30,659 nt of DNA from Myxococcaceae bacterium. GTDB lineage: Bacteria > Myxococcota > Myxococcia > Myxococcales > Myxococcaceae. The number at the start of each line of letters is the position of its first letter. The stretch's first letter is position 1. The DNA lies in NCBI GenBank assembly GCA_044230055.1, contig JBGART010000083.1:1-30659 (forward strand), read 5' to 3'. Made by a program: the position numbers and the translations under genes. The notes under the pieces are model-generated. The model saw only the letters and a program-made list of their open reading frames with translations, did not search any database and was not told where the DNA came from. Positions 1 to 21,200 of this stretch are shown one piece after another.

Positions 1-1160
1 CGTGGCGCCCTTTCGCGAATGGCTGCGTCCAGGCGCTCTTTCGTGCGCTCGGACAGGAGCACTTCCGTGGCTCCTTCGTACGGCTCACGCCGCAGTCTGA
101 AGCCCAGGAAGTGACGTTCCTCCGGTCGGGCGACGGCGCTCTTGGAGACGTTCACCTTCAGGCGCATGCGCCTTTCCAGGAATGCCGCCACGCTTGCCAT
201 CACCCGCTGCCCCGCTCGTTCGCTGCGGACGTAGATGTTGCAGTCGTCTGCGTAGCGCACGAAACGGTGCCCGCGCTGAGAGAGCTCAGTATCCAGTTCC
301 GTCAGCACGATGTTGCTGAGCAGTGGGGAGAGTGGGCCTCCTTGCGGCACCCCCTCTTCCGTGCGCACCACCACGCCATCCGGCATCACGACTTTCGCCT
401 TGAGCATCGCGGCGATCAGTTTGAGTAGGGGCCGGTCCTCGATGCGCTCTGTGAGCCGCGCCAGGAGTCGTTGATGGTTCACCCGGTCGAAGAACTTCTC
501 TAGGTCCAGGTCCACCACCCACTCGTACCCCTCGCCGAGGTACTTTCGGGCTTCGTCGATTGCTGTATGGCAGCTTCGTCCAGGTCTGAATCCGTGGCTC
601 GAAACGTGGAACGTTGGCTCGTACAGTGGTTCGAGCTCCAGCCGTACTGCCTCCTGGACCACGCGATCGACGACGTTGGGTATTCCCAGCCCTCGTTGGC
701 CACCGCCTCCCTTTGGTATCCACACTCGCCGGATGTTCCCCGGTTCGTATGTTCCTTCGAGAAGTGCGGTTTCCAGCTCCGCCAGCACGCCTGACAGGTG
801 TTGCATCACCTGCTCGACGCTCTGTCGGTCCGGGCCAGGTGCACCCTTGTTCGCCGCCACCTTTTGAAACGCTTCGTACAACCGCTTGGAGACCTTCTCC
901 ATCGTCGGGTGCTTTGCCTGCTCCCTCTTGTGCCTTGGCTTCGGCGCCGCGCGCGTTTCAGGTGCAGGTCCGCCCGTACCCGTTACGCCGTTGGCCCCCT
1001 CGCGGGGCTTTTCTGCTGTCCCAAGATCCAGATTGAGCTGCATTGCCCCTTTGCTGACCGTGACCGCCTTCCCTCCCTCAGCTTGTTCGACTGCCTGAGT
1101 TTGGACCGCCTTTCGGCGGCCTTCCGGTACCTCGCGGTCATCTGACTTCTGCCGGGTCAT
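1..1160 (-). CDS. Group II intron-encoded reverse transcriptase/maturase (intron-encoded protein), 5'-partial in window (C-terminus lies beyond window start). Possible alternative start at 902 (MEKVSKRL...).
   Basis: Hand translation of the minus strand from ATG at 1160 gives an uninterrupted frame carrying the canonical group II RT motifs in order. Motifs: KGAPGPD (RT0), GGGQRGLGIPNVVDRVVQ, SHGFRPGRSCHTAI (RT1/2), DLDLEKFFDRVNH, GVPQGGPLSPLLSNIVL (RT4), RYADDCNIY (RT5, YADD catalytic motif). It is absent from the ORF track only because it is open at the window edge. Confidence 0.85.
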   Translation of the reverse strand, partial: MTRQKSDDREVPEGRRKAVQTQAVEQAEGGKAVTVSKGAMQLNLDLGTAEKPREGANGVTGTGGPAPETRAAPKPRHKREQAKHPTMEKVSKRLYEAFQKVAANKGAPGPDRQSVEQVMQHLSGVLAELETALLEGTYEPGNIRRVWIPKGGGGQRGLGIPNVVDRVVQEAVRLELEPLYEPTFHVSSHGFRPGRSCHTAIDEARKYLGEGYEWVVDLDLEKFFDRVNHQRLLARLTERIEDRPLLKLIAAMLKAKVVMPDGVVVRTEEGVPQGGPLSPLLSNIVLTELDTELSQRGHRFVRYADDCNIYVRSERAGQRVMASVAAFLERRMRLKVNVSKSAVARPEERHFLGFRLRREPYEGATEVLLSERTKERLDAAIRERAP

Positions 1161-1542
1161 TCGCCTTTCGTACTTTCGTTCCTACGGGCTACCCACCTTG
1201 TTGGGTGGGCGGCCCGGCAGATCTCCGTGGGTAAGCTGCGACAGATTCTGTGGCCGGGCCGTCGCCAGTACACCGGCACTTCGAAATGGAAATTGGGTTT
1301 CGTCGCCGGTCGCCGACTCACCCAGTGCCGATGCCTTAACGGCGCTTCACTCTCGTTCGACTCGTCCACACACCTATGACTTCCATCGGACGCAACTCTC
1401 GCGAGCCCCCTTCCCCATTGCTGAACCTCTACAAGCGTCCGGCGTGCCACGCTTCCCGCCTGCGCCCTTGTCTCTTTGGTGTCGGGTTCCCTCCATCAGG
1501 GCCCCGTCGTCACTTCCTTTCTGCCGCGCGTGCCACGCGCAC
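1..1542 (-). mobile_element. Group II intron (likely class C-like), 5' portion. Intron RNA domains I-III would be about 1161-1542 and the ORF lies in domain IV. The 3' end (DV/DVI) is outside the window.
   Basis: The minus-strand sequence at 1542 reads 5'-GUGCGCG..., matching the group II 5' consensus GUGYG. That position is ~380 nt upstream of the RT ORF start, which fits DI-DIII length for compact bacterial introns. It lies directly 3' of a palindromic hairpin (the repeat arm at 1543-1583), the hallmark insertion context of IIC introns. Confidence 0.6.
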
Positions 1543-1690
1543 GACTATGCGCCTGACGGCGCAACGCTCGACACGAACGGGGGTGACCCCGCGATGGTGC
1601 GGAGCCCTGGTGAGCTGTTCTCTAGGAGCGTTGCGCCTGACGGCGCGACGCTCGACGCGAACGGGGCCAACCCCGCGACGTCGCCGCTTC
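1543..1690. repeat. Copy 1 (partial/rearranged) of a MITE-like palindromic repeat family: two direct copies of the ~42-bp arm (1543-1583 and ~1626-1668) separated by the conserved tail motif gagctgttctctagga.
   Basis: Arm sequence cgactatgcgcctgacggcgcaacgctcgacacgaacgggg is near-identical to the arms at 6453-6496 and 12477-12519. Each arm has an internal palindrome (gcgttgcgcc-N4-ggcgcaacgc). Confidence 0.6.
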
Positions 1691-1716
1691 GAGAGGGGAA
1701 ACCGTGCCGCCTCTCG

Positions 1717-3834
1717 CTACCGCCTCGGGTGAGCGGCCGCCCGGCGGCGTGCCAGCACTTGGAGCCCGAGCAGCGCCGCGGCGAGGCCTGAGAGCTCCAT
1801 CCCGCCCGCGGAGCACCCGCCCTGCTTCGCAGCATCCCGGCGCACGACCGTCAGCTCCGCGCGGGCGCTCTCTCCGGCCGCGCCCCTCGCGTCCGCGAGC
1901 AACACATTTGTCCCGGGGGCCAGGCTCACCGTCACGCTGAAGCCCGCGCCGCTCACCTGCGCCGGCTCCCCATTCACTGTCACGGACGCCGGAGTGAACC
2001 CGCTCACCTCGCCGTGGACCTCGAGCGATGCACCGTCCACCGCCTGTCCGGAGGTCAACCCGAGGAAGCGCACCGACGGCGCATCCAGCTCCACATCCAG
2101 CACCGCGCGCGCCTCATCGCTCACCGTCACCGGGAGCGAGCGGCTGGAGAACCCCGCCTTGGCCACCACCAGCGTCGCGCTCAACGGCGCCGCGCTCACG
2201 TCGAGCTGATACGCGCCATCCGCTCCGCTCACCGCACCGGCCACCGGGACGCCCGGGGTCTCCTCGAGCGCCAGCGTGGCGCCCGCAACCGGGCCGCCAC
2301 CCCGGGCGCGTACCGTGCCGCGAAGGCCGGCTTTGAACGTGACCGTGCTGCGCGCCACCGTGGGGTTGCCGGCCCCGTCTACCGCGGAGAGCTCAACGAC
2401 ATTCGGCCCGGCCTTCAGCTTGAGCGCCACCGAGAAGCTGCCGTTGAGCACCGGGAGCGCCTGGGCGGCAGCGCCGTTGAGCGTGAACGACACGGTGGCC
2501 AGCGGGCCCGCGGCGTCGGACGCGGTGCCGGTCACCGTGACCCTGGCCGTCTCCAGCTGCGCGCCATCTTCCGGCGACGTGACAGCCAGCAGCGGCGCCT
2601 GAAAATCCCCAGGACCGACGGGCGTCAGCGGGACGGAGGCAGTCTCCGTCGCGCCCGCCACGAGGAACTTCGACAACGACGCCGACTGGTAGCGCTCGCG
2701 GGTGACGGTGACGGTGTGGCTCCCCGCCGGGAGCACCAGCTGGAACGCTCCGGTGAGGTCGGTGGTGGCGCTCTGACCGGAGGCAGAGACCGTCGCGCCG
2801 GCGACCACGTGCGAGGTGTCCGTCGGCCGCGCCGCGTCCAGCGCGTAGACCGTGCCCTGGAGCGTGGCCGGCGACTGCAGCACGTCGATGTTCATCGAGC
2901 CCCAGATGATGGCGCCGGCGGTGACCGTCCGGCTCACGGAGCTGGTGCTGTAGCCCGCCTTGGTGGCCGTCACGGTGTACGTCCCGGGCGGCATCAGGAA
3001 CGTGTACAGCCCGTCCGCGCCGGTGGTCTGCGTCACGCCGTTCAAGGTCACCGTGGCGCCCACCACGCGGTCGGCGGTGTTGCCCTTCTGGTAGATGGCG
3101 CCGGTCAACGTGCCGGTCTCCGTCGCCTGCGCGGTGAGCGCCTGGAGCTGCGCGAACGTCCCGTTGAAGCGCTCCAGGTCCACGTTCCCGACAATCCCGG
3201 GGACCGCGCCGGTGCTGGAGTACTGATGGAAGGTCCACTTGCTCCAGCCGGGCGGAGGCGGTGGGCAGGTGCTGTAGTAGTTGGCGAGGACGAGCGGATA
3301 GCTCCCGTACGCAGTGGACTGCACGAAGTCGCGCCAGAAGTAGAACTCCGTGTAGAGGAGCGGCGTGCGGCCGGTCCCCGCCTTCACCGCGCTGACAATC
3401 TCCGCCACGCGCGCCGCCACCGTCGCCACCGGCAGCCCGTCCGCGTCCTCGATGTCAATCATCGGCGGCAGGTCCCCCGGCTCCAACGGGACCTGGATGA
3501 GCGTGTCCGCCTGAACCTGAAGGCTCTGCGCCGGGAAGAAGCGCAGGTACGCGCCGCGGATGAGGCCCGCGGCCTTCATCCCCGCCCAGTTCGTCGTGAA
3601 GTACGGATCCGCCGAGGTGCCGCGCCCCGCCTGCGCGATGGCGAACACCTTCCCGGACGCCTTCACCTTCGACCAGTCGATGGCGCCCTGCCACCGCGCC
3701 ACGTCGATGCCCTCCAGCGTGGTGGGCCCCGCGCAGAGTTCCTGCCGCTGCGCCTCGAGCGGACGCTCGCCTTCAGCCGGCAGAGTCGTTCCGCACGCAG
3801 TGGCGACAAGAAAGACGAGGAGCGGTGAGCGCAT
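1717..3834 (-). CDS. Secreted GH25-family lysozyme (muramidase) with C-terminal tandem Ig-like/carboxypeptidase-regulatory-like beta-sandwich repeats and a MYXO-CTERM sorting signal.
   Basis: N-terminus MRSPLLVFLVATACG (signal/lipobox-like), then EGIDVARWQGAIDW...GKVFAIAQAG...GAYLRFFP, typical of GH25 muramidases. Repeated ...GTYTVTATKAGYS... / ...GSHTVTVTRERYQ... beta-sandwich repeats follow. The C-terminus GGCSAGGMELSGLAAALLGLQVLARRRAAA matches the MYXO-CTERM pattern (GGC + hydrophobic + Arg-rich). The ORF track's longer ORF to 3987 uses an upstream alternative start; ATG at 3834 fits the signal peptide. Confidence 0.8.
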   Translation of the reverse strand: MRSPLLVFLVATACGTTLPAEGERPLEAQRQELCAGPTTLEGIDVARWQGAIDWSKVKASGKVFAIAQAGRGTSADPYFTTNWAGMKAAGLIRGAYLRFFPAQSLQVQADTLIQVPLEPGDLPPMIDIEDADGLPVATVAARVAEIVSAVKAGTGRTPLLYTEFYFWRDFVQSTAYGSYPLVLANYYSTCPPPPPGWSKWTFHQYSSTGAVPGIVGNVDLERFNGTFAQLQALTAQATETGTLTGAIYQKGNTADRVVGATVTLNGVTQTTGADGLYTFLMPPGTYTVTATKAGYSTSSVSRTVTAGAIIWGSMNIDVLQSPATLQGTVYALDAARPTDTSHVVAGATVSASGQSATTDLTGAFQLVLPAGSHTVTVTRERYQSASLSKFLVAGATETASVPLTPVGPGDFQAPLLAVTSPEDGAQLETARVTVTGTASDAAGPLATVSFTLNGAAAQALPVLNGSFSVALKLKAGPNVVELSAVDGAGNPTVARSTVTFKAGLRGTVRARGGGPVAGATLALEETPGVPVAGAVSGADGAYQLDVSAAPLSATLVVAKAGFSSRSLPVTVSDEARAVLDVELDAPSVRFLGLTSGQAVDGASLEVHGEVSGFTPASVTVNGEPAQVSGAGFSVTVSLAPGTNVLLADARGAAGESARAELTVVRRDAAKQGGCSAGGMELSGLAAALLGLQVLARRRAAAHPRR

Positions 3835-3889
3835 GAGGGGTGCCCGGTATCTTGCGCGAAGCCCCCTCGAGGACAAGTGCGCAGCAGGC

Positions 3890-4288
3890 TCAGTCGCGCG
3901 GCGGAGACACGGCGCAGAGGAAGCGGGCGCGGTTGTCGTCCGAGGACTGGGGCGGCCCCAACCCGCTCTGCGGCCCACCGAAGACAAGCTCCACCCCCTC
4001 GCGCGGGGCGTCGGATGGGGCGGGTGCCGGCTCGTACAGGAGGAGCTCGCACCCCAGCTTGCGGCCCTCGTCGCGCGCGGCGTCTCGGATGGCGCTCAGG
4101 CGGGTGGTGTTCGAGTGAAAAACCTCAAGCACGCCCACCGTGCGGTAGCCCTCCGGCGCGCTCGCTGCCGCGAGGAACCGCGGGTCCATCGCGAGCTTCG
4201 TGGGCGCGTAAGCCTTATCCAGCGGCAGAAAACGGGTGGTGACGCACGCCGGGAGCAGACACAGGCAGATGGAAAGTCGCAGGCGCAT
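3890..4288 (-). CDS. Small lipoprotein, function unknown (~132 aa).
   Basis: ATG at 4288 gives MRLRLSICLCLLPACVTT..., a lipoprotein signal with lipobox Cys. High GC3 codon usage. The in-frame upstream extension to GTG 4492 reported by the ORF track is probably not translated. Confidence 0.5.
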   Translation of the reverse strand: MRLRLSICLCLLPACVTTRFLPLDKAYAPTKLAMDPRFLAAASAPEGYRTVGVLEVFHSNTTRLSAIRDAARDEGRKLGCELLLYEPAPAPSDAPREGVELVFGGPQSGLGPPQSSDDNRARFLCAVSPPRD

Positions 4289-6024: not shown

Positions 6025-6101
6025 CTGGCAGCGGATCGATGGATTCGAACCATCACCTCGAGATTAACGTTCTCGCGCTCTACCGATTGAGCTGGATTCG
6101 C
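6025..6101 (-). tRNA. tRNA gene or tRNA-like sequence, anticodon GTT (Asn) by position, with non-canonical features.
   Basis: Minus-strand read: gcgaatc-ca-GCTCaatcggtaGAGC-g-CGAGA-acGTTaa-TCTCG-aggt-GATGGttcgaatCCATC-gatccgc-t. The D-arm is canonical (G18G19) and the T-arm perfect (GGTTCGAATCC). Acceptor stem pairs 6/7 (A4:C69 mismatch). C at position 8 and C at position 33 (both normally U). No encoded CCA. Confidence 0.55.
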
Positions 6102-6315
6102 CACGAGTTTTCATGCTCGCGCGTTGTGGACCTTCGTCGGGAAGCCCGCCCGGCCGGCACCGAAGGTGTGAGAACCGCCGAAGCGATGGACCTGAGCAAA
6201 CGATGGCTCAGGCCAGCCAGGAGGCATCACGGGTAGCCGACGCGGCGAGGGACGGGACCTCCCATGAAAGCCTGACGGCCAGCGCTCCGCTGAATGGCGA
6301 AACACAGTCGGGCCC

Positions 6316-6540
6316 CTCCCCGTTCGCCTCGAGCGTTGCGCCGCCAGGCGCATAGTCGAGAGGTGGCGCAAACCCAGGCACGGCACTTTGCCGGTCTGTT
6401 TCGAGCAGAGCGAAGCGGCCCATGAGCCGAGCTTCGGGAGCAGTGCCGACGTCTCGACTATGCGCCTGACGGCGCAACGCTCGACGCGAACGGGGGCAAC
6501 TCCGCGAGGTGGCAGACCCCTATGAGCTGTTCTCCAGGAG
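6316..6540. repeat. Copy 2 of MITE-like element: ~45-bp terminal inverted repeats (6316-6360 and 6453-6496) flanking a 92-bp core, plus 3' tail ...gagctgttctccagga.
   Basis: Left arm ccccgttcgcctcgagcgttgcgccgccaggcgcatagtcgag is the reverse complement of right arm ctcgactatgcgcctgacggcgcaacgctcgacgcgaacgggg. The core is the reverse complement of the copy-3 core. Confidence 0.65.
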
Positions 6541-6569
6541 CGAGCTGGGGGAGGTTCAAGATCGGAGCG

Positions 6570-7025
6570 CTAGCTGCGAGGACGCCCCCTTCGGCGGGTG
6601 GCGTTCCCACCGAAGAGCTGCGAGGCGCGGGAGAGGTTGGCCTTCACCTTCGGGGCTTCGGTGCAGTCGCTGCCCTCGACGCACGCACAGCGCAGGCTCT
6701 CCTCGAGCAGCCGGCGCATCGTCTGCGCCTGCGCGATGAGCGTGTCGAGCTCCGTCATCTTCCGCGCCATCAGCTGCTGTCGGGCCAGCCGCGCGTCCTC
6801 CGTTCCGGAGGCGGTGTCGATCAACGCCTTGAGCTCCTCCAAGCTGAAGCCCAGGCGCTGGCCGATGTCGATGAGCACCAGCCTCTGCACCACGTCGTCG
6901 GAGTACTGCCGCCGCCCGCTGGAGCGCGGCGGCTCCTGCACCAGACCGAGCCGCTCGTAGTAGCGGATGGCGGAAGGTCGCAGGCCCGTCTTCTGAGCCA
7001 CCTCGGAGATGTTCATCGCCTGCAA
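6570..7025 (-). CDS. MerR-family transcriptional regulator with Cys-rich C-terminus (CACVEGSDC).
   Basis: N-terminal HTH MNISEVAQKTGLRPSAIRYYERLGLV (classic MerR signature), then a coiled-coil dimerisation region and a C-terminal Cys cluster. The likely true start is MNIS at 7016. Confidence 0.8.
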   Translation of the reverse strand: MQAMNISEVAQKTGLRPSAIRYYERLGLVQEPPRSSGRRQYSDDVVQRLVLIDIGQRLGFSLEELKALIDTASGTEDARLARQQLMARKMTELDTLIAQAQTMRRLLEESLRCACVEGSDCTEAPKVKANLSRASQLFGGNATRRRGRPRS

Positions 7026-7068: not shown

Positions 7069-7683
7069 TCAGCTGGCCTGCGCGTCGGGGGAGCTGGCCG
7101 CGAGGAGGTGACGCAGCCGCGCCATCGCGCGCTGCTTGCGCTTGCGCAGCGTGGTGCTCTTGATGGAGAGCTCCGGCGACTCGCCGAGCAGCGCCTTCTG
7201 GTCCGCGTCGCTCAGGGTGCTCAGCACGCTGCGAAGAACGCCGTAGCGGTCCTCCCGGAGCAGCTGCTGCTCTGCATTGAGCTCCAGGTCCTCTACGTCC
7301 TCCAGCGCGCTCAAGTCACTCTGGCGCCGCCGCGTCCCAGCGCGGCGCAGCACCTGAACCTCGAAGCTGGCGATGGCACGCGCCCAGGAGAGGGGCTGGC
7401 TGTAGCCGTTGTAGCGCTTGACCTGCATGAACATCTTGATGAGCGTCGTCTGCGCCACGTCCTCCGCGTCCGCGCGGTTCTGGAGCAGGCGGGACACGTA
7501 GTTGAGCAATGAGGGCCAGAGCGCACGGAAGAGCTCCGTCGACGAGACCTCGTCGGCGTCTTCCCCATCTCTCACGCGAGCGAGGTGAAGCCGCACATCG
7601 TCCTGACTGCGACGTCGCGGGGCGCGCTCACCCGCGCCACTACAGCTCTCACAATTGATCGGCTTCACGCGGGCAAGCGTCAT
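7069..7683 (-). CDS. ECF-type RNA polymerase sigma-70 family factor.
   Basis: Region 2-like DAEDVAQTTLIKMF...YNGYSQPLSWARAIASFEV and region 4 HTH ...SIKSTTLRKRKQRAMARLR. The N-terminal extension contains CESCSG. Confidence 0.8.
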   Translation of the reverse strand: MTLARVKPINCESCSGAGERAPRRRSQDDVRLHLARVRDGEDADEVSSTELFRALWPSLLNYVSRLLQNRADAEDVAQTTLIKMFMQVKRYNGYSQPLSWARAIASFEVQVLRRAGTRRRQSDLSALEDVEDLELNAEQQLLREDRYGVLRSVLSTLSDADQKALLGESPELSIKSTTLRKRKQRAMARLRHLLAASSPDAQAS

Positions 7684-7728
7684 CGTTGGCGCACCACGTC
7701 TGGTTGGGTTCCCGTCCCTGGAGACACC

Positions 7729-7747
7729 CGCGAATAAAAAATTCGCG
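7729..7747. promoter_or_regulatory. Perfect 7-bp inverted repeat with A5 spacer (CGCGAAT-AAAAA-ATTCGCG), 46-64 bp upstream of the ECF sigma start inside a locally low-GC (~50%) 350-bp region (7690-8040).
   Basis: Read directly from the sequence. Candidate operator or RNA hairpin. Confidence 0.4.
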
Positions 7748-7908
7748 TGTAAATCCTCCTAAGGTAGATGCGGAGCGCCTTAAGTGTGACAATGAACGAC
7801 CCGTGCAATCGCTCGCTTCACATAACTTCAAAGTGAGGGGTCAAAGCTGTGCGCGAACGCTTCGTTGCACAAATACATTCAGAGACGCTTCAGAATTAAC
7901 CGCAGCGT

Positions 7909-9291
7909 TTATTTTTGTGACAGCGCTGCGCTGCTTTCATTCGCACTCCAGCTCAAGTCGACTTCAACAGGCACCGCGCGTGTGGATTGGCTCATCACTG
8001 AGCGCAATCCGAGCGTAGAGATTACGGTGGAGGCCGCCTCTTCACCGGAGCGCACGGCGCCCTCGACGCCAGGGAGCGCGAGGTAGTCCCCAGCGAGGAT
8101 GACCGGATGGCGGTGGGCGCGCCGCGCTGCGAGCTGCGAGAGCCATCCTTCATAGAAGAGCGGCATCGCCTCGGCAATCTGAACAACCGACGACTTCGAC
8201 GGAGCCAGCGCGCGACCCAGCAGCTTCTCCGTTTCGGCCAGCAGCGTGTCCCTCACCACTGCTTTGGACTCCGACAGCAGGCGCGGCGCGGCCCCGACAG
8301 AGGCGATGGTCTCCAGCCCGCCCTTTCCGACAGGCACCTGTGAGGTCCCTTTCGCTTCGACGGCCGCCACCCAACCCAGTGGCGCGTTCGGGCCGAACGG
8401 AATGGCGCAGCGGATACCCACCGGCGCGTCCAGGCATTGATGGAGCTTCACCGTCGGTTGGTAGCGCGCGCGCCGCACCAGGCTGAGCTCCGGGTGGTCC
8501 GAGGGGAGCATCGCCGCCGCGGCGGGCCCCGGGACGGCCATGACCGCCATCTGTGCGTCGAGCACCGCGCCGTCCTGCAGCGTCACGCGCACGCCAGGCC
8601 CCGCCGCCAAGACCTTCGCCACCGGCGAGGAGGGCCGGAAGTCCAGCCCGCGCGCGACGGATTCCCACAGCCGCCCGAGGCCGCCCTTGAGGCAGAGGGT
8701 CTTCAGGCCCGCCACGTGGACCGCTTCAAGCAGCGCCCAGGCGCGCGAGGTTTCGGTCGCCGGCAGCAGCGTGATGCTCTCCAGGACCGGCCGCAGCAGC
8801 GCGTCCACGAACTGCTCGCCCAACGCCCGCCGGAAGAACGCGTCGGCGCTCTCGTCGTCGAAGCGCGCCGCCCGGTGGGGATGCTCCCAGGAGAGGAACG
8901 GGAGCGCCCAGAGGCCCTTCGCGCCGAAGGCCAAAGCGCGCAGCCGCGCTCGCAGGCTGAGCAGCGGCGTCCGGAGGAACCGGGCCAAGGTCAACGGCAA
9001 GGGGAAGCGCTGCCCGTCCCGCCAAAGCTCGATGTCCTGGAAGGGGTAGGGCACCAGCTCGCCGGTGAGCCCCTGCCCCGCAATGAGCGCCAGCGTGCGC
9101 CGGTTGAAGGACGCGATGAAGACCGCGCCGCGGTCGAAGCGCCACTCACCAACGCGGTCGTAGCCGGACCTGCCGCCGGGCGCCGCGGCGCTCTCCAGCA
9201 CCACCACCCTCGCCCCGTGCTGGGTGAGCTTCACCGCGGCCGCCAGCCCCGCCGGGCCGCCACCAATCACCACCACGCGCCTGTCACCCAT
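7909..9291 (-). CDS. FAD/NAD(P)-dependent oxidoreductase of the amine-oxidase/phytoene-desaturase/protoporphyrinogen-oxidase superfamily.
   Basis: N-terminal Rossmann dinucleotide motif MGDRRVVVIGGGPAGLAAAVKLTQHGARVVVLESAAAPGGRS. Length 460 aa. The start overlaps the upstream gene stop (operon). The C-terminal ~40 aa run into the low-GC region and may be an over-extension. Confidence 0.75.
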   Translation of the reverse strand: MGDRRVVVIGGGPAGLAAAVKLTQHGARVVVLESAAAPGGRSGYDRVGEWRFDRGAVFIASFNRRTLALIAGQGLTGELVPYPFQDIELWRDGQRFPLPLTLARFLRTPLLSLRARLRALAFGAKGLWALPFLSWEHPHRAARFDDESADAFFRRALGEQFVDALLRPVLESITLLPATETSRAWALLEAVHVAGLKTLCLKGGLGRLWESVARGLDFRPSSPVAKVLAAGPGVRVTLQDGAVLDAQMAVMAVPGPAAAAMLPSDHPELSLVRRARYQPTVKLHQCLDAPVGIRCAIPFGPNAPLGWVAAVEAKGTSQVPVGKGGLETIASVGAAPRLLSESKAVVRDTLLAETEKLLGRALAPSKSSVVQIAEAMPLFYEGWLSQLAARRAHRHPVILAGDYLALPGVEGAVRSGEEAASTVISTLGLRSVMSQSTRAVPVEVDLSWSANESSAALSQK

Positions 9292-9299
9292 GGTCCGTC

Positions 9300-11612
9300 T
9301 CAGTAGAACTGCAGGTACTGCACGGGAGAGGCGCTCGCCGAGGCGCGCTTGGGCAGAGACGGCAGGATGATGAGCGCCGCCTTCAGGAGTGCAGAGATGC
9401 GATCGTTGTCGATGCCGCGCAGCACCGCCTGGAACAACCCCAGCGCGTTGCGGGTGGTCTGAGGGAACGTGCGGAGGTCAAACGGGAAGGTGACGCTCTC
9501 CGGAGAGGACTGGCTGCGGACGTACGCCTCCATCCCCGCGCCCTCCTGCCGCTCCTTCAGCGCCGGGAAGATGAGCTCGCGCAGGAAGACGATGTCCTCG
9601 CCAAAGTCGATGGCCTCGTCCACCACCAGCGAGGCGAACATGAACGCCGAGAGCAAGGCCTCCCGCCGCTGCGCGCGCTCGTCAAGGCACTCGGCGCCGC
9701 TGAGCATCGCGGCGAAGGCCTCGGTAGGTAGGACGAAGGTGTCGAACTTGTAGTTGAAGATGTCCTCCATCGTCCGGCGGCCGGCGGCGGGCGGGAGGTG
9801 GCCGTGCTCCGCCTTGAACCAGGCGGAGTACATCACGCGGGTTTTTCCCTCGAGGTAGCGCTGGGCCTCGGGTCCGAACGGCGACGCGGCCTTCTCCCGC
9901 GCGAAGATGCTGGCCCACATCGCGCTCTCGTCATGGCTCCAGAGGTGGCGCTGAAATTCCCCCTCGCTGAGCGGGCGGCCCTGAAGCCGCAGGTCCTCGC
10001 GGAAGGAGCGGTCATCCACCACGCGGTCCAACATCACCATGAGGTTCCAGGAGGACGTGAACAGCCCCAGGCCGCCTCTTGCTGCGACGGATTCGAAGGA
10101 GTCCCCGGAGAGCATGCAGTACGCCCAGAGCGTCATCTTCACCGGCAAGCGCCGGTCATGCCGTTCGCCGATGACCGGATACTCGTCGCTCCACGAGCGC
10201 AGCCAGTCCTCCGTCCAGCGCGTGTACTGCCGGTCAAACTCGCGCAGGCTGCGCAGGACGCCGGGAATCTGCGTGAGCTCCGGCAGCGAGAGGGGCAGCT
10301 CATCCCGCATCTCACCCAGGCAGCCCATCAGCGGTTCCACCCGCGTGGTGGCGTAGGCGCGAAGCTCCTCGCGTGAGACCTCCGCCGGCTCGAACCGGCC
10401 GTGGCCCTGGCCCTCGTACGGGGAGCGCGGCGCGAAGAGCTGGAGCGGCTCCGTTGGAAAGACCGTGAAGCTCAACGGGAAGCGCTTGAGGCTGCCCAGA
10501 AGGTGCCGCACCGCGGACCCGCCCTCGCGCAGCCCCTGGAGCGCGGCGGCGAACCGGCCCGGCCGCGGGCGGCGGTGGGCGGCCTGCAGCGCCGGTGCGG
10601 CGCTTGAGCCAGGCTGGAACGCCTCGTCCTCCGGCAGGAGCAGCCGCGCCACCTTGTGGAGCTCCTGGAACGCCACCGTGTCGTTGCGCTCCGACTCCAG
10701 CAGGACGAGTGCCTCCCGGCCGTAGGACTGCGCCAGCTGCTCGCAGTACGCGGGAGCGCCCGAGTCGGCGATGAGGCGCAGGGCGCGCTGGAGCTCCGCC
10801 TCCTCGAGCACCGGCCGCTGCAGCAGCGCCTGCAGCTCCGCCGAGCGCTCAAGCGCGTAGAGCACCGGCAGCGTGCGCTTGCGCCGGACGAGGTCGCTCA
10901 CGCCCTGCTTCTGCAGCTGCTCGACCCGGAAGAGGCCCAGCGCGTCGTCGCGAATCTGGAAAGCCATACCCAAAAGCCGGCCAAAGCGACGCCACTTGTC
11001 AGCGTCTCCGCCCGCCAGCACCGCGCCCGCCTCGGTGGCCGCGCCGAACAACGCCGCAGTCTTGCCTGAGATGAGCTTCATGTATTCGAGGATAGAGACG
11101 TCCTCGCGGCGCTCGTTGCGCAGGTCCTGATACTGGCCCTCGCAGAGCTCCACTCCAGCGGCCTGCAGGATGCGCAGCAGCCGGAGCGCGGTGCGGGGGT
11201 CTACCCCGCGGGCCTCCACCTCCAGCGCCGCGAGGTTGGCCAGCGCGTGCATGCCGTCGCCGGTGTTGATGCCGTGGTTGAGCCCCCAGACTTTCCACAG
11301 CGTGGGATGCCCGCGCCGCACCTCATCCCCGTCCTCGATGTCGTCATGCACGAGCGAGAAGTTGTGCAACAGCTCGATGGACGCAGCCATCGGCAGGGCC
11401 TGCGCGCGCTGTCCCTCCAGCGCTTCGCAGGTGAGCAGGCACAGGGCGGCGCGGTAGCGCTTTCCTCTCCTGCCCGAGCCCGACGCCGGCTCCGCGCCCG
11501 ACCAACCCAGGTGGTAGCGCATCATGTCGTAGAACGCGCCGGTCTGGCTCCGCGAGTCGATGACACGGCGAATCTCCGCGTCCACCAGCGGACCGCACTC
11601 ATTCAGGGTCAT
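9300..11612 (-). CDS. Fusion protein: N-terminal trans-polyprenyl diphosphate synthase (FPP/GGPP synthase family, ~340 aa) + ~430-aa C-terminal domain of unknown function (possibly isoprenoid-synthase-like).
   Basis: First Asp-rich motif LVHDDIEDGDEVRRGHPT and second FQIRDDALG, with KT..LF and GKTAAL elements typical of polyprenyl synthetases. The C-terminal half contains DRVVDDRSFRED and LGLFQAVLRGIDNDRIS, weakly reminiscent of squalene/phytoene-synthase Asp-rich motifs (speculative). Confidence 0.75.
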   Translation of the reverse strand: MTLNECGPLVDAEIRRVIDSRSQTGAFYDMMRYHLGWSGAEPASGSGRRGKRYRAALCLLTCEALEGQRAQALPMAASIELLHNFSLVHDDIEDGDEVRRGHPTLWKVWGLNHGINTGDGMHALANLAALEVEARGVDPRTALRLLRILQAAGVELCEGQYQDLRNERREDVSILEYMKLISGKTAALFGAATEAGAVLAGGDADKWRRFGRLLGMAFQIRDDALGLFRVEQLQKQGVSDLVRRKRTLPVLYALERSAELQALLQRPVLEEAELQRALRLIADSGAPAYCEQLAQSYGREALVLLESERNDTVAFQELHKVARLLLPEDEAFQPGSSAAPALQAAHRRPRPGRFAAALQGLREGGSAVRHLLGSLKRFPLSFTVFPTEPLQLFAPRSPYEGQGHGRFEPAEVSREELRAYATTRVEPLMGCLGEMRDELPLSLPELTQIPGVLRSLREFDRQYTRWTEDWLRSWSDEYPVIGERHDRRLPVKMTLWAYCMLSGDSFESVAARGGLGLFTSSWNLMVMLDRVVDDRSFREDLRLQGRPLSEGEFQRHLWSHDESAMWASIFAREKAASPFGPEAQRYLEGKTRVMYSAWFKAEHGHLPPAAGRRTMEDIFNYKFDTFVLPTEAFAAMLSGAECLDERAQRREALLSAFMFASLVVDEAIDFGEDIVFLRELIFPALKERQEGAGMEAYVRSQSSPESVTFPFDLRTFPQTTRNALGLFQAVLRGIDNDRISALLKAALIILPSLPKRASASASPVQYLQFY

Positions 11613-11728: not shown

Positions 11729-12379
11729 TTGAAGATGCGCTCGTCCACTCAACGCAAATCCCTGGCACGCCCGGCCGGAGTGCTCGCCCTCCTCTCTGGC
11801 TTTGGCTTTGTCGGCTTCAGCGGGCTGGCGTGCCTGGGCTGCCTGGTGCCGCTGGTCTCCGCCTGGGGCGTGGGCGCGCTGGCGGAACACTGGGCCGCGC
11901 TGCCCACCGCGGCGGGCCTCGGCTTCGCCGCCGTCGCTACCACCGTCTGGTTCTTCGTCATGCGCCGAAGGGAGCGCCGTACCGGCGCCGCCTGCGGCCC
12001 CGAGTGCGCCACACCGGTGGGCGTCACCGACAAGCCTGTCGCTTGCGACCTCAACGTCTTCACCCCGTCGGAGCGGGAGGAACACGGCTCCCAGTTTCTT
12101 CAGCGGGTGCTCGGCAAGGCGCGGCGGCGGGTAGAGCTCTCCGACGGACTGGCGCTGGAGTACGCGAGCGACCCCGACTTCTTCGTGCAGCTGGCGCAGT
12201 GGACGGTGAACGAGCGGCGCTGCTGCCCGTTCTTCACGTTTGAGCTGGCGCTGGAGCCGGACGGCGGAGCGCTCTGGCTCAAGCTGCGCGGGCCGCAGGG
12301 GACGCGCGAGCTGCTGCTGGCGGGGATTGCGTCGCTCCCTCCCCCGTTCGCGTCGAGCGTTGCGCCGTCAGGCGCATAG
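11729..12379 (+). CDS. Cys-motif membrane protein with MerT-like N-terminal half (two TM helices, CxxC in TM1, CGPEC in cytoplasmic loop) and a C-terminal domain containing a CC pair (ERRCCPFFTF). Candidate thiophilic-metal binding/transport protein. The 3' end runs into MITE copy 3.
   Basis: TM1 GLACLGCLVPLV resembles MerT ASACCLGPLV. The following loop AACGPECA resembles the MerT cytoplasmic Cys pair. The last 14 codons (...PPPFASSVAPSGA*) are encoded by the MITE arm, including the TAG stop. Confidence 0.6.
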   Translation: MKMRSSTQRKSLARPAGVLALLSGFGFVGFSGLACLGCLVPLVSAWGVGALAEHWAALPTAAGLGFAAVATTVWFFVMRRRERRTGAACGPECATPVGVTDKPVACDLNVFTPSEREEHGSQFLQRVLGKARRRVELSDGLALEYASDPDFFVQLAQWTVNERRCCPFFTFELALEPDGGALWLKLRGPQGTRELLLAGIASLPPPFASSVAPSGA

Positions 12380-12598
12380 TCGAGACGTCGGCAGTGCTTC
12401 CGAAGCTTGGCTCATGGGCCGCTTCGCTTTGCTCGAAACAACCCAGCAAAGTGCCGTGCGTGGGTTTGCGCCACCTCTCGACTATGCGCCTGACGGCGCA
12501 ACGCTCGAGGCGAGCGGGGAGGCGCCTGACTGAGAACAGCTGTTTCTCCGACGAAATGGCCGACCGGGGGAGGCGCCTGACTGAGAGCAGCTGTGCCC
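12337..12598. repeat. Copy 3 of MITE-like element: inverted arms 12337-12384 and 12477-12519, 92-bp core in opposite orientation to copy 2, followed by a 2x ~34-bp direct repeat tail (gggaggcgcctgactgaga[a/g]cagctgt...).
   Basis: Direct comparison with copy 2. Located between convergent genes (11729..12379 + and 12599..13762 -). Confidence 0.7.
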
Positions 12599-13762
12599 TT
12601 AGAAGTAGAGCCGAATCTGCAGGTGCCCCATCCTCGGGACCGAGCCGAGCTCACCCGCGCCGACGCTTACCATCCCTCCCGCGGCGACGGTGGTGTTCTG
12701 GTCAAAGCTCCACTCCAGCTCTGGCACCACCAGGCCAGAGCCGTCCGTCAGGTTGGCGATGACCACCAGGTTCGCCGTGAGCAGCGCGCCCAGCTCGTAG
12801 CTGACGGCCGCGCCCGCGTAGAAGCGCCCGACCAGGGCCAGCTCCCCCGACTGCCAATCCAGGCGGCGCCGGACGTCTGCGTAGCCGGCGGGCGTCAGCG
12901 CACCGGCGCGGCTGTAGTGCAGCTCCGCGGTGACGGTGAGCCCCGGCCGCAGCGTGTGCTGCGCGCCGACGGTGGCCCGCAGCAGCGGAATGCGCGAGGG
13001 CGGCTCCTCCACTTCTGAGCCGTCCTGCCGCGCCCGCCAGAACCCCTCCGCGTAGAGCGACGCGCCGCCCACGTCCCCGGAGACATCCACTGCCACCGCC
13101 GGCGACGTGCCGGAGACGCCGGCGTACGCCGCGAGGTCCACGCCCGGGACGCTCACCCGGGCGCGGCCCAGCAGCGCGCCCTGGCTCAGGTAGCGGCGGT
13201 GGCCCACCGCGTACACCTCCAGCTCCACCTGCTCGCCCACCGGCGCAGTCAACCGCACCGCGTCCACGCCGGTCTTGAACTCCCGGTCCAGCGCTGCGGG
13301 GTGGAACGGCGCGAAGAGGTCCGACGCGGCGAACAGCCGCGCGCTGCCGTGGCCCAGCGCCTGACGCCCCACCCGCAGCGTCGCCGCCCCCACCGCGAGC
13401 GTCAGCATCAAGCGGTCCAGGTTCTGGTCCAGCGCGAAGCTGGAGGTGCGCACAATCTGCCGTGGCGCATCCACCAGCCGCAGGGCGGTGTGAACCGAAG
13501 GCGCTGCTTGCAGCGGGAAGACCGCCGACTGGAGCGCGTAGGCCAGCTCGAACGCGCCGTCCTCGCCGCTGACTTTGAGCTCCGCGCGCAGGCCCTGCTC
13601 CACCGCAGCCTGCGCCGGCGCGTCCGGCCCCGCGGGCGCGAGGTAGAGCGTGAGCACCTTGAGCCGCCCGCCGAAGGTGGCGGTGCGCTCGGCCCCTGAG
13701 AGCTCGAACGCGAAGGCGGCCCGGGACGCGAGCAGCAGCGCGAGCCACGCGGCCCGCCTCAT
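12599..13762 (-). CDS. Outer-membrane beta-barrel protein (signal peptide, C-terminal aromatic residue), last gene of the export operon.
   Basis: MRRAAWLALLLASRAAFA signal. Alternating amphipathic beta-strand pattern. C-terminal ...HLQIRLYF. The start overlaps the stop of the upstream ABC ATPase gene. Confidence 0.6.
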   Translation of the reverse strand: MRRAAWLALLLASRAAFAFELSGAERTATFGGRLKVLTLYLAPAGPDAPAQAAVEQGLRAELKVSGEDGAFELAYALQSAVFPLQAAPSVHTALRLVDAPRQIVRTSSFALDQNLDRLMLTLAVGAATLRVGRQALGHGSARLFAASDLFAPFHPAALDREFKTGVDAVRLTAPVGEQVELEVYAVGHRRYLSQGALLGRARVSVPGVDLAAYAGVSGTSPAVAVDVSGDVGGASLYAEGFWRARQDGSEVEEPPSRIPLLRATVGAQHTLRPGLTVTAELHYSRAGALTPAGYADVRRRLDWQSGELALVGRFYAGAAVSYELGALLTANLVVIANLTDGSGLVVPELEWSFDQNTTVAAGGMVSVGAGELGSVPRMGHLQIRLYF

Positions 13763-16903: not shown

Positions 16904-17649
16904 CACCCGCCCCCGGAGGTGAGCGCGGAGAGCGTGAAGAGGGACTCGCTGGCCGGCGTGTCGAACTCCAGCGTGTCGTAGAGGAGCGTCGTCTGGTGGC
17001 CCTGCTTCGTGAGCGGCGTGACCACCAGCTTGTGCGGCGTGAGCCGCTCCCCCACCTTCCTCACGTCGGAGAACGTCAGGCGGCGCGCCAGGCGGCCCTT
17101 GTCGTCGTGGTACTCGCAGGTGACCGGGACCAGCGTCCGCGCGTCCACGCAGGCCACCACCCGCTCCCAGGCGACCGCGGCGTCCGGCCGGGCCTTGAGC
17201 TCCACGCAGGTCTGCCCTTCGGGCGCGGATGGGAGGGTGGTCCCCTCGTAGTCGACGCTGTACTTCACCGCCTGGACGAGGTCGTCGTGGGTGAAGTCGC
17301 TCCCCATCCAGGAGCTCATCAACATCGAGGGCGGGATGCGCACCGTCTTGCCAATCTTCGGCAGGTAGTTCCACATCTGGGCGCCCTTCTTCAGGCTGGC
17401 AGTGCCGCTCTCCTTCTTCGGCGCCAGAATCCTCACCAGCGCGTCATCCGCGCCGCGCGACCAGAAGTCCAGGCTGAGCTCGCGCTGGAAGTCCGGCGCC
17501 TGCACCTGCATGCGCATCCGGCCGTGGCTGGTCCGGGACCGGAACAGCTCATCCAGCCGCGCGCTCACCGCCTTCGCCTTCTCATCCGGCGCCGCCTGCG
17601 CCGCGACGCCCGCCACCAGCAGCGCCAGCACCCATCCCCGGCTCCTCAT
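16903..17649 (-). CDS. Periplasmic LolA-like / outer-membrane lipoprotein-sorting (DUF-type) protein commonly partnered with FtsX/ABC exporters.
   Basis: Signal peptide MRSRGWVLALLVAGVAAQA; ~230-aa beta-rich soluble protein; conserved partner position. The start ATG overlaps the TfuA stop (ATGA). Confidence 0.6.
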   Translation of the reverse strand: MRSRGWVLALLVAGVAAQAAPDEKAKAVSARLDELFRSRTSHGRMRMQVQAPDFQRELSLDFWSRGADDALVRILAPKKESGTASLKKGAQMWNYLPKIGKTVRIPPSMLMSSWMGSDFTHDDLVQAVKYSVDYEGTTLPSAPEGQTCVELKARPDAAVAWERVVACVDARTLVPVTCEYHDDKGRLARRLTFSDVRKVGERLTPHKLVVTPLTKQGHQTTLLYDTLEFDTPASESLFTLSALTSGGG

Positions 17650-18977
17650 CCGTTCGCCCCTCCGTACTCGCGCAGCAGCTCCTCCAGCAGCGCCTCACCG
17701 CTCTCGAACCCCAGCTCCCGCGCGTGCAATTCGACGGACCCGCCGACGGTCCGCACCTGCCGCTGGTAGGTCTCCAGCGCGCGCGCCAGTCGCCGCTCCC
17801 GCGCTCCAGGCTCCTCGGCCGCGGGTGCCGGGCGCTCGCGCAGGTGCGCAAGCGTGCGCCCGAACGTCCCGCGCCGCTTGAGCTCCTGCGACAGCAGCTG
17901 CGCCAGCCGCCCCTCGCCGCGCAGCGCCGCCTGTACCTTGTCGAAGAGCACCTCGAAACGCAGGACTTCGCGCAAGCCCGCGCCCGACAGCTGATTCTCC
18001 TCCAGCCAGCGCCGCGTGGCCTGCGCGCTCACCAGGCCTCGCGCCCGACGGAAGCGCTCACCGGCCGCCGCCACCTCCTGCTCGCTGACGGCAAGCCCCC
18101 TCGCCGCCGCCTCCAGCTCCAGCAGCTGGAGCAGCACCGTCGAGCGCAACAGCTCCTCGCCCTCCGGCCGCACGCGCACGCCCCGCCAAAGCGCCGCCGC
18201 ATCCACGTCTGCAGACGGCGCGTCCGGCAACGCGAGCTGCTCCGGTGAGGTGGAGCGGACCAGCTTGTGCCAGAAGCGCGTCTGCTCGAAGTGAAAGCCC
18301 GGCGCGGGCGCCAGCGCCGGCAACCCTTCAGCGAGCCGCTGCAACAGCGCCACCGCGTCGCTCCGCTTGAGGTTCGGCCGGTGGGCGAGGACGAAGGCGC
18401 GCAGCCGCGCGCGCTCCGCACCCGGGATGGCCAGCGCTTCGCCCAGCCCCTCGCTCCACAGCGCGGGCCAGCTGCGCTCCGGGTAGTGCAGCCCCTTCGC
18501 CGCCTGCTCCAGCAGCGTCCGCGTCCGGGCGGAGATGTCTCCGGCCTGCTCCGCCAGCCGCAGCCCATCCCGCAGGTTGACCATCGCGTCGGAGAGCGGC
18601 ACGTAGCCGTCCTCCGCGGGGCCGTGGACCACGGTCACCTCGTCGTCGTCCTCCAGCACCCCGTCGCGGTAGGCCTCGAAGATGCGCCCCACGCCCTCCA
18701 TCCCGAAGGCACAGAGCTCCGCGGCGCGCAGCGCCCCCATGCTGGAGGCCCCCAGTACGCGCACGCCGCTGGCCAGCGCGAAGAGCAGCTCCTTGTGCCA
18801 GACCGCCGGGCGCTGTTCAAAGAAGCCGTCGATGAGCGCGATGACGGACGGCTTGCGCGTGGCCACCAGCTGGTAGACGTCCCCCATCGCCGCTGGGGGC
18901 AGGAAGTGGGCCGTGGGGAGCAGGGCCTTCGCCTCGACGGGCGGCAGGGAAGGACCCAGGAAAACCCAGACGCTCAC
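17646..18977 (-). CDS. TfuA-like protein (YcaO partner for peptide backbone thioamidation) with ~200-aa C-terminal extension.
   Basis: N-terminus (M)SVWVFLGPSLPPVEAKALLPTAHFLPPAAMGDVYQL...IALIDGFFEQRPAVWHKELLFALASGVRVLGASSMGALRAAEL...GVGRIFEAYRDGVLEDDDEVTVVHGP, a near-textbook TfuA domain. GTG start overlaps the YcaO stop. Confidence 0.8.
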   Translation of the reverse strand: MSVWVFLGPSLPPVEAKALLPTAHFLPPAAMGDVYQLVATRKPSVIALIDGFFEQRPAVWHKELLFALASGVRVLGASSMGALRAAELCAFGMEGVGRIFEAYRDGVLEDDDEVTVVHGPAEDGYVPLSDAMVNLRDGLRLAEQAGDISARTRTLLEQAAKGLHYPERSWPALWSEGLGEALAIPGAERARLRAFVLAHRPNLKRSDAVALLQRLAEGLPALAPAPGFHFEQTRFWHKLVRSTSPEQLALPDAPSADVDAAALWRGVRVRPEGEELLRSTVLLQLLELEAAARGLAVSEQEVAAAGERFRRARGLVSAQATRRWLEENQLSGAGLREVLRFEVLFDKVQAALRGEGRLAQLLSQELKRRGTFGRTLAHLRERPAPAAEEPGARERRLARALETYQRQVRTVGGSVELHARELGFESGEALLEELLREYGGANG

Positions 18978-20209
18978 GCGCGCGCCTCCTGCGTTGCGGA
19001 GGCCTTGAGGTATGCGTTGACGCGTGGGCCCGGCTGGTAGTCGCTGGCGAAGAGCCGCGCCTCCAGCCCCGGGACCACTACCTTCACCACGGGCACCTTC
19101 AGCTCCGGCCGGGAGAGGTTCACCACCGCTGCTTGCGCCAGGCCGATGCGCCGCAGCGCCTGCACGAGGACCTGGAGGTCTCCCTCGAAGGTGTCCGTCG
19201 CCAGGCTGGCGCGCGCGCGGAACGCGGCGGCCGGCGCCGGGGTGCGGATGCGCTCAATGCGGGCGGCCAGGGCGGCGTCACGCGTCCAGGCGCGGTACTT
19301 CGAGTAGAAGAGGTCATCCCGGCTCCCGGAGACGAAGGCCAGCCGGCTCTGCACCGCTTCGCTGAGCGCGCGCATCAGCGCCACCGCGGGGGAGAGGTGA
19401 CAGCCGTAGCCTCCGAAGATGCCCAACCTCCGCCAGCGCGGCCGGTCGGATCCGTCGAAGAGCTCGCAGGCGTACGCCGGGATGCCGGTGTCCGAGGTGA
19501 CGTCCCAGATACCCACGTCGACGTCCGCCAGCCGCATGCGGCGCAGCAGCTCCAGACAGCCGGCGTCATCCACCGTCGCCGGGTCCACCTGCCGCGTCTT
19601 CGCTTCCTCGGCGCTCTGGTACTCCCAGAGCGTGATGGCGTCCCGCTCGATGAGCTCGCACAGGCCGTGGACGGTGGCCTCCACCAGGTGATTGCCAGAG
19701 GCCAGCCCGTTGCTGGAGGGCGGCACGACCGGGCGGTAGCCCGCAGGCCAGACGAAGCTGACGCTCACCGCGTCGTGCGGCACCCAAACGGACTCGCCGC
19801 GCAGGAGGTCCTCTCCCTCCACCCAGAGGCAAGGGCCGGCTTGGGGACCCAGCCCCAGCTCCAGCACCCGGGAGGACTTCGCCAGCAGCGCAGGCTGTTC
19901 GTGCCGCAAGGGCAGCGCCAGGTGTTCGCCGTGCCAGACCTCGATGGACTCCATCAGGGCGGACACCTTGGCGGCGAGAGGGTCCAACCCCTTCCCCTGC
20001 GACGTCGCCAGCGAGCGCGAGTTGGGCCGCACCGCCACGTAGACGGGCAAGCCAATCCGGTCCAACCCCGTCACGTTCGCCAGCCGCGTGATGCCCAGCG
20101 GGCCCATCAGCGGCGAGAAGCGCGCGAAGGTCTCCTCCGGGCTGCACGCGCGGTGCGTCCCGTTGAGGAAGCGCTTGGGCGGATGCGGTGGCTCGCCCCA
20201 GAGGTTCAT
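18974..20209 (-). CDS. YcaO-domain protein (ATP-dependent peptide backbone amide activation: cyclodehydratase/thioamidase type).
   Basis: LNGTHRACSPEETFARFSPLMGPLGITRLANVTGLDRIGLPVYVAVRP...LCELIERDAITLWEY (YcaO ATP/Mg-binding ExxERD-type motifs). ATG overlaps the stop of the upstream HO-like gene. Confidence 0.85.
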   Translation of the reverse strand: MNLWGEPPHPPKRFLNGTHRACSPEETFARFSPLMGPLGITRLANVTGLDRIGLPVYVAVRPNSRSLATSQGKGLDPLAAKVSALMESIEVWHGEHLALPLRHEQPALLAKSSRVLELGLGPQAGPCLWVEGEDLLRGESVWVPHDAVSVSFVWPAGYRPVVPPSSNGLASGNHLVEATVHGLCELIERDAITLWEYQSAEEAKTRQVDPATVDDAGCLELLRRMRLADVDVGIWDVTSDTGIPAYACELFDGSDRPRWRRLGIFGGYGCHLSPAVALMRALSEAVQSRLAFVSGSRDDLFYSKYRAWTRDAALAARIERIRTPAPAAAFRARASLATDTFEGDLQVLVQALRRIGLAQAAVVNLSRPELKVPVVKVVVPGLEARLFASDYQPGPRVNAYLKASATQEARA

Positions 20210-20928
20210 GCGGTCTGCCGGTAGACGTCGTGACCCATCCGCCCCCAGGTCTCCAGGGTGGCGCGCGCGTGGAGCAACACCGCCTCCTGGTCCGCCGGGT
20301 CCGTGAAGCCGCGCAGCCGCCGCCGGGCCGCGTCCATGTGACCCACGTCCGACTCCGCGTGGCCGCCGAAGAAGCTCACCGCGTTGCGGATGTTGGGGAG
20401 CTGCGAGTGGGCGATGAGGTTCTTCACAATCCGTCCCGCCACCTTCTCCCCGAGCGACTCCAACACGTAGGCAATGCCCCAGACGCCCACCGGCGTGGGA
20501 CTGAGCGCGGCCGCCCAGAACATGGCGATGTACGCTTTGGCCGCCGGGCCGGGCTGGCTGCGCTCCAGCGCCTCGCGGGAGACGCCCAGCTCACCCAGGT
20601 CCGAGGCCAGCCACGCGTCATGCCCGGACTCTTCGTCACCGTGCGCGGCCAGCTCCTTCGCCATCTGCTGGAGGTAGGGCGTCTTGAAGCGCGCCCAGCG
20701 CGCGTCCGCGAAGCGCGCATCGTCGCTGCCGTAGAGCCGCATGGACTCGCCGGCGGCGCGGAGCATGGCGGGGACGTGCTTGGCGCCCTGGCGAATCTCG
20801 TCATAGATGCCGATGAGCTGCGCGCGCGTGGGCGTGCCGCGCAGGAGCGGCCCGAAGACCGGGTCCTCCTCCAGCTGGGCCGCCAGCTGCGCGCTCAGCG
20901 CTTCCAGCTGTTCAATCAAGTCGCTCAT
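20206..20928 (-). CDS. Haem-oxygenase-like di-iron enzyme / 'iron-containing redox enzyme family' (TenA/PqqC/CADD-like fold) protein.
   Basis: ~240 aa, all-helical. Recurring E/H/D ligand pattern (...DEESGHDAW..., ...FFGGHAESDVGHMD...). Family assignment is from memory of this protein family and is less certain than YcaO/TfuA. Confidence 0.55.
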   Translation of the reverse strand: MSDLIEQLEALSAQLAAQLEEDPVFGPLLRGTPTRAQLIGIYDEIRQGAKHVPAMLRAAGESMRLYGSDDARFADARWARFKTPYLQQMAKELAAHGDEESGHDAWLASDLGELGVSREALERSQPGPAAKAYIAMFWAAALSPTPVGVWGIAYVLESLGEKVAGRIVKNLIAHSQLPNIRNAVSFFGGHAESDVGHMDAARRRLRGFTDPADQEAVLLHARATLETWGRMGHDVYRQTA

Positions 20929-21148: not shown

Positions 21149-21200
21149 TTTTTTCTCTTCCCCTCCTCTCTTGGGCCAGGGTCGTCACGGGTGGCCGCCC

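Follow-up and report, generated by a model that had tools for sequence, protein, structure and literature searches.

Three probable insertions or derivatives of one dispersed, non-coding modular repeat of fixed polarity in a 30.7-kb stretch of Myxococcaceae DNA

Background

The BIMEs of E. coli and the BOX elements of Streptococcus pneumoniae are modular mosaic repeats, while the Correia elements (CREE/NEMIS) of Neisseria have 26-nt terminal inverted repeats (TIRs) and a TA target duplication, and are co-transcribed with their neighbours as a hairpin. The Rickettsia palindromic elements (RPE) are palindromic repeats that can reside in frame inside protein-coding genes. A repeat of M. xanthus is reportedly the subject of a 1991 note in J. 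Bacteriol., which is not relied on here, and no described myxobacterial repeat or MITE of the kind reported below was found in the searchable literature. The REPINs of Pseudomonas fluorescens SBW25 have a less conserved spacer and also occur as singlets and in tandem clusters (Bertels & Rainey 2011, PMC3116915).

Here we describe a repeat family represented by three loci in the window, by which we mean the whole stretch of 30,659 nt that was analysed (70% GC). By analogy, its closest kinds appear to be the REPINs and BIMEs in organisation, the Correia elements in size, TIRs and orientation, and the RPE in in-frame residence; no sequence relationship was found to any collection searched. Like REPINs (PMC3116915), the repeat has a pair of inverted units, each a palindrome in itself, on either side of a less conserved spacer of ~70-110 nt, together predicted to make one long hairpin, and it occurs as singlets and in tandem clusters, in extragenic locations and with no target duplication seen. 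Unlike REPINs, it has arms of 47 nt (compared to roughly 20-40 nt in typical REPs), and these carry fixed differences and different outer tails, giving strict polarity; its copies so far number in the tens, as counted through ORF proxies, compared to hundreds, and one of them lies within coding sequence (in the external protein P0024). The mosaic of arm, core, tail A and tail B, which may be complete, partial or tandem and is found mostly at gene 3' ends, resembles that of BIMEs and BOX elements, to which it has no sequence relationship. With Correia elements it shares a size of ~100-200 bp, TIRs, occurrence in either orientation and internal variants, but its arms are 47 nt long and no duplication was detected. 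Like RPE, it is found in frame, in P0024 and at the C-terminus of the gene at 11729-12379, although most of its copies are intergenic.

Results and discussion

Organisation of the repeat in the window

Three copies of a MITE-like repeat had been proposed for the window, and all of their parts are present at roughly the positions given, far above chance; a 23-nt arm motif has six matches in the window at one mismatch or fewer and none in 100 shuffles. The parts are as follows, arms being named L or R by their place in the window and by copy number, and typed by the bases at arm positions 11 and 45.

1542-1692, minus strand: copy 1, a two-arm cluster without a core, arms in the same orientation and 84 nt apart
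1542-1630, minus strand: copy 1 unit a, a coreless solo G11-type arm (1542-1583) plus tail A (1584-1630)
1626-1692, minus strand: copy 1 unit b, a second arm 84 nt downstream, then the start of tail-A-like sequence
6296-6317, minus strand: copy 2, degenerate tail-B remnant on the outer side of the C11 arm; the inverted match reaches 6305, and GGGGAGGGGCCCGACTG is aligned with GGGGAGGCGCCTGACTG
6318-6495, minus strand: copy 2, full unit (arm-core-arm, 47 + 84 + 47 nt)
6318-6364, minus strand: copy 2, C11/G45 arm (L2), the right arm in the element sense, adjoining the GGCGCAAACCC end of the core; 45/47 against the reverse complement of 12473-12519
6365-6448, minus strand: copy 2, core of 84 nt; 76/84 against the reverse complement of 12389-12472, 22/84 in direct comparison
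6449-6495, minus strand: copy 2, G11/C45 arm (R2), the left arm in the element sense; its reverse complement is 12342-12388 (47/47)
6496-6542, minus strand: copy 2, tail A, a module also found after both solo arms of copy 1
12342-12519, plus strand: copy 3, full unit (arm-core-arm, 47 + 84 + 47 nt)
12342-12388, plus strand: copy 3, left arm (L3), G11/C45, encoding the last ~13 codons and the stop of the gene at 11729-12379
12389-12472, plus strand: copy 3, core of 84 nt, from repeat detection and core alignment
12473-12519, plus strand: copy 3, right arm (R3), C11/G45, from repeat detection and arm alignment
12516-12594, plus strand: copy 3, two tandem tail-B units (12516-12543 and 12567-12594) with a period of 51 nt, 96% identical over 28 nt

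The order of a full unit is tail A (reverse complement), G11/C45 arm of 47 nt, core of 84 nt, C11/G45 arm of 47 nt and one to four tail-B units, giving an element of ~180-290 nt. The arm pairs of copies 2 and 3 are inverted, 94% complementary and separated by 84 nt, which bears out the description of the family as MITE-like with TIRs, and the 92-nt core that had been reported as inverted between these copies is this 84-nt core together with 4 nt of each arm. In both full units the C11 arm is succeeded by tail B, as GGGGAGGCGCCTGACTG in copy 3 and as the degenerate GGGGAGGGGCCCGACTG in copy 2, and in copy 3 it stops 4 nt short of the stop codon of the convergent gene at 12599-13762 (minus strand). 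Tail A follows the G11 arm of copy 2 and both solo arms of copy 1, with matches between 1542-1608 and 6455-6521 (87%) and between 1611-1630 and 6523-6542 (95%). Modules can be partial or tandem, as in the two arm-plus-tail-A units of copy 1 and the two tail-B units of copy 3. In copy 1 unit b the inner part of the arm has been remodelled into a perfect 12-bp hairpin (1626-1653).

On the minus strand, positions 1-1408 belong to a group II intron, of which the contig start cuts off all but the 5' part; Rfam RF02001 matches at 1238-1408 (70 bits) and its reverse-transcriptase ORF at 3-1028 (minus strand) has a PF00078 match. The 5' end of the intron lies ~134 nt downstream of copy 1 in the minus-strand sense, just after a GC hairpin at 1526-1541. 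Truncation of copy 1 by this intron was considered and rejected, as ~134 nt of unrelated sequence lie between the two.

The units are inverted relative to each other as a whole

The longest inverted repeat in the window pairs 6305-6496 with 12341-12532, which are reverse complements over 192 nt with 94% identity. The original prediction held that the arms stay constant between copies 2 and 3 while the core flips between them, possibly by recombination in a phase-variable element, and that insertion in either orientation was the other possibility. Of these, insertion in either orientation is consistent with copy 2 on the minus and copy 3 on the plus strand, but constancy of the arms does not stand, because the entire 192-nt unit is reverse-complementary and the arm marks invert with it. 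Within a unit the arms can be told apart by arm position 11, which is C or G, and arm position 45, which is G or C: the reverse complement of R2 equals L3 (47/47) and that of R3 matches L2 at 45/47, compared to 44/47 each for the same-side pairs L2 and L3 and R2 and R3, which differ at positions 11 and 45. Tail B has the same position relative to the core in both full copies. Copies 2 and 3 lie on opposite strands, and thus the core seems inverted between identical arms without any DNA-inversion switch.

The same polarity was seen in copies outside the window, read through translated ORFs. In the main frame a C11 arm gives ...GATLEA and a G11 arm would give ...GATLDA, so a flipped core would read '...GATLDA' and then tail A, a form that the profile used could have detected. 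All 17 external right arms, which follow the sense 3' end of the core, are of C11 type ('...GATLEA'), and all six readable left arms, which precede the core, are of G11/C45 type ('RSRRAL...SRDVG' or 'PVRVERC...VETS'); tail B always comes after the right arm, and tail A before the left arm wherever it is readable. Among these 23 external arms and the window copies, no flipped or chimeric copy, in which the CGGCAGTGC end of the core would adjoin a C11 arm and tail B, was found. The core thus has one orientation relative to a tail, which the original prediction had itself named as a sign of simple insertion polarity, and recombinational flipping, with the phase variation that it would bring, is unsupported as the orientation of marks 11 and 45 and of tail B goes with that of the core. 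Polarity within the unit is fixed, and no flipping was seen.

Folding and conservation of the modules

A palindrome nested in each arm had been predicted and is found as a hairpin with a 6-bp stem and a 4-nt loop (TGCGCC-TGAC-GGCGCA), the stem being extended to 12 bp in the arm at 1626-1653. The stability of these arm hairpins relative to shuffled controls is modest (z-scores of -0.9 to -3.7). Folding of arm, core and arm together, which the original prediction had proposed as a check, gave energies of -160.8 and -154.4 kcal/mol for the full units with z-scores of -9.1 and -9.7, so that the unit, as single-stranded DNA or RNA, is predicted to form one long hairpin of ~56 bp. There is no run of T after the hairpin, and Rfam searches of the element gave only noise hits below the gathering thresholds.

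The arms are more conserved than the core (92/94 compared to 76/84 identical positions between copies 2 and 3), and in the peptide alignment 12 of the 13 arm columns are invariant compared to 7 of the 20 core columns. It is the inverted-repeat arm that encodes the residues conserved best, so conservation acts at the DNA level. No target-site duplication was seen around the elements, whose boundaries are uncertain; the best flanking direct repeats are of 3-5 nt, within the random control (typical maximum 4-5 nt).

Reading frames in the element

It had been predicted that each arm translates as PFASSVAPSGA followed by a stop codon. This reading holds for three arms, the others giving PLASSVAPSGA, PFVSSVAPSGA or SPFASSVAPPGA before the stop. 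The prediction that such frames create ORF-finder artefacts was correct, and spurious ORFs run across the element copies. One of these, beginning MGRF, differs between copies 2 and 3 by eight protein-altering codon changes, one of them with two base changes in the codon, and by two silent ones; the position of its stop is set by how long a poly-G run is, and copy 2 has lost the stop. No ribosome-binding site for it is visible in the sequence and no Pfam family matches the element-derived products. One strand of the element has one frame without a stop codon. As far as its reading frames indicate, the element is non-coding, with no conserved coding capacity.

Position relative to genes and effects on host proteins

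Each copy in the window has a gene neighbour, as follows.

1717-3987, minus strand: glycoside hydrolase (family 25) gene, neighbour of copy 1
6570-7025, minus strand: MerR-family regulator gene, neighbour of copy 2
11729-12379, plus strand: hypothetical membrane protein gene, neighbour of copy 3; its C-terminus, ...PPPFASSVAPSGA and stop, comes from the element, and P0009 is the same protein

All three loci overlap a gene's 3' end or are within ~25 nt of it, and they have the same orientation as that gene, a placement and co-orientation that are at most suggestive at three loci. Copy 2 separates the MerR-family stop codon from the promoter region of a tRNA gene (6030-6101, minus strand; Rfam, 55 bits), which lies ~200 nt downstream of it.

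The ORF at 11729-12379 is a real gene, with a GC3 of 0.88 and a homologue, P0010, that is 54% identical over 98% of its length. The C-terminal fusion proposed for it was confirmed, in that its last ~13 codons and stop lie inside the arm. The C-terminal tail of P0010 differs from, and is unrelated to, that of this gene, and set against P0010 the C-terminus has, to judge by the alignment, been replaced by element sequence. Another case was found outside the window in P0024, a 538-amino acid MenE-like 2-succinylbenzoate-CoA ligase with an in-frame element-derived segment (PRSRRALRRQAHSRDVG...GATFEASGG...) directly before its TSGTTGRPK motif, where it has ~66 residues more than solved MenE structures; PDB 5x8f aligns with P0024 on both sides of the extra segment. 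One copy is thus intragenic (P0024) and one C-terminal (the gene at 11729-12379), and because one stop-free frame runs through the element, copies can be absorbed into coding sequence, as in these two cases.

Copies beyond the window

The repeats are not confined to this locus, as at least 17 external element-derived ORF products were found in public protein sets: eight by a translated-element search, three as their cluster mates, one with a concatenated-frame query and five longer ones by an exhaustive profile search. These represent 20 or more additional copies, spread over about a dozen other NCBI contigs, which are assumed to be of the same or closely related genomes. The first 12 products come from contigs of 429919, 295487, 188401, 169198, 164684, 119500, 93084, 88811, 60779, 47237 and 25361 bp, and since these are eleven differing sizes the family is dispersed. 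The copy number is at least ~22 by this proxy, 2.5 copies having been examined as DNA and all others read through translated ORFs that gene callers had annotated. Among the external long spurious ORFs, P0022 spans two full elements in tandem and then three 78-nt tail-B units, and P0026 contains four tail-B units; in P0022, P0023 and P0026 tail B is present as one to four tandem 78-nt units.

No match to the element was found in IMG/VR, nor by blastn in plasmid and phage collections, and JGI metagenome contigs gave no 29-mer match and, from peptide patterns, no relative confirmed by tblastn. Among the matches listed in a genome-collection scan is an intergenic motif at two loci of Acidimicrobiia MAGs (L001 5123-5145 and L002 4361-4383), which matches the inner arm exactly over 25 nt, TGCGCCTGGCGGCGCGACGCTCGAC. 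The two loci share ~90 nt with each other, contain one copy each and match no Rfam family. With a chance expectation of ~0.5 hits in GC-rich genomes, this match may be either a coincidence or a shared REP-like hairpin.

A Logan short-read contig of 3.6 kb from run SRR28480390 represents the same locus as copy 2, L003 3505-3596 corresponding to 6478-6569 of the window, and carries a polyprenyl-synthetase fragment and CrtI-like, sigma and MerR genes. It ends 18 nt into arm R2, because the repeat breaks short-read assembly, and the run is probably from the organism of the window.

Origin of the copies and alternative explanations

We consider it highly probable (roughly 85%) that each of the three loci in the window is an insertion or a derivative of one dispersed and modular repeat family that is non-coding, with fixed polarity and non-autonomous spread. 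A recombinase flipping the 84-92-nt core between the 47-nt arms, with copies 2 and 3 in opposite states of an invertible, phase-variable segment, would in principle find a possible substrate in the long, 94% complementary inverted arms around a non-palindromic core. However, as the core shares its inversion with arm marks 11 and 45 and with the adjoining tail B, the crossover would have to fall in the outermost 10 nt or further out, and the 17 external right and six external left arms include no swapped arrangement. Domain searches of the 30.7-kb window found no recombinase, invertase or transposase gene, its sole mobile-element gene being the group II intron reverse transcriptase, and there is no promoter-like site in or beside the core; each locus, moreover, was seen in one orientation state only, copies 2 and 3 being different loci. 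We give this explanation almost no credence. Hardly better placed is the idea that the element is a small-protein gene (MGRFALLETNRQSAVRGFAPPLDYAPDGATLEASGGGA, 38-39 amino acids) or a structured small RNA gene duplicated around the genome, which would account for the ORF that gene callers annotate in at least 11 copies and for the very stable fold. The substitutions are mostly non-synonymous and radical, the stop varies with poly-G length and is missing in copy 2, Pfam gave no hit, Rfam matches were sub-threshold noise and conservation follows the inverted-repeat arms, i.e. the DNA level. The element is also found within a ligase gene and in truncated or tandem pieces, which speaks against a gene of either kind; both readings were rejected, and we regard them as very improbable.

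As regards mechanism, the repeat family is best explained as a non-autonomous mobile unit that would be mobilised in trans. Our leading guess is a REPIN/BIME-type process, in which a Y1/HUH 'RAYT-like' transposase would act on single-stranded DNA hairpins and leave no target duplication; the second is a classical MITE, which would derive from an IS element by deletion and be moved by a DDE transposase binding its terminal inverted repeats. Small size, lack of coding capacity, 47-nt TIRs, dispersal and both orientations would all suit a classical MITE, and the tails may carry the inverted symmetry further outward (GGAGAACAGCT ... AGCTGTTTCTCC). Against it, the flanking direct repeats are no longer than in the random control, and REP/BIME-type repeats more typically show solo arms, arm-plus-tail arrays and arms conserved better than their core; searches of plasmid and phage collections, which are weak tests, gave no IS with matching ends. 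The palindromic arms, looser spacer, singlets, tandem arrays and apparent lack of target duplication match REPINs and fit a MITE less well, and so, by analogy, we tentatively favour the hairpin, single-strand (RAYT-like) mechanism, at somewhat short of even odds, and rank the DDE-type MITE below it as doubtful though still a serious candidate. Copies seem to land mainly just 3' of genes, where the hairpin, from its position and orientation, could serve as a transcript-end or stabiliser structure, and the stop-free frame can let copies enter coding sequence.

A more specific reading is that this is an undescribed modular REPIN/BIME-like family of a GC-rich, probably myxobacterial, lineage, with unusually long polarised arms and with copies repeatedly taken into proteins, and this in its entirety we think unlikely, if worth stating. 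The protein cases within it may be the new C-terminus of the window gene and the in-frame insert of ~66-85 residues in the MenE-like ligase, and the sharing of the inner 25 nt of the arm with the Acidimicrobiia MAGs hints at a possible hairpin recognition site used across phyla.

Significance

As bacterial junk or mobile DNA the repeat is of an ordinary kind, and it provides no new phase-variation mechanism. It matters in practice, as the family breaks short-read assemblies, seeds spurious 38-amino acid "genes" and long false ORFs in annotation, and alters real protein ends; the in-frame insertions would be useful examples of repeat-driven protein change. If the mobilising enzyme is found, this GC-rich lineage would join the few with dissected REPIN-type elements.

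Surrounding genes

Several genes around the copies (7069-11612 and 17646-26129) have functions in isoprenoid metabolism or peptide modification. Their products are a CrtI-like amine oxidase, a polyprenyl synthetase of 770 amino acids and an ECF-type sigma factor, and further a terpene synthase, an HMG-CoA reductase and a YcaO-TfuA pair accompanied by a haem-oxygenase-like enzyme. This gene content and the 70% GC together suggest a myxobacterium. At its right end (30400-30659) the contig, read by eye, lies inside an apparent ECF-sigma-type ORF, and its end at 30659 is probably a further assembly break caused by a repeat or a paralogue.
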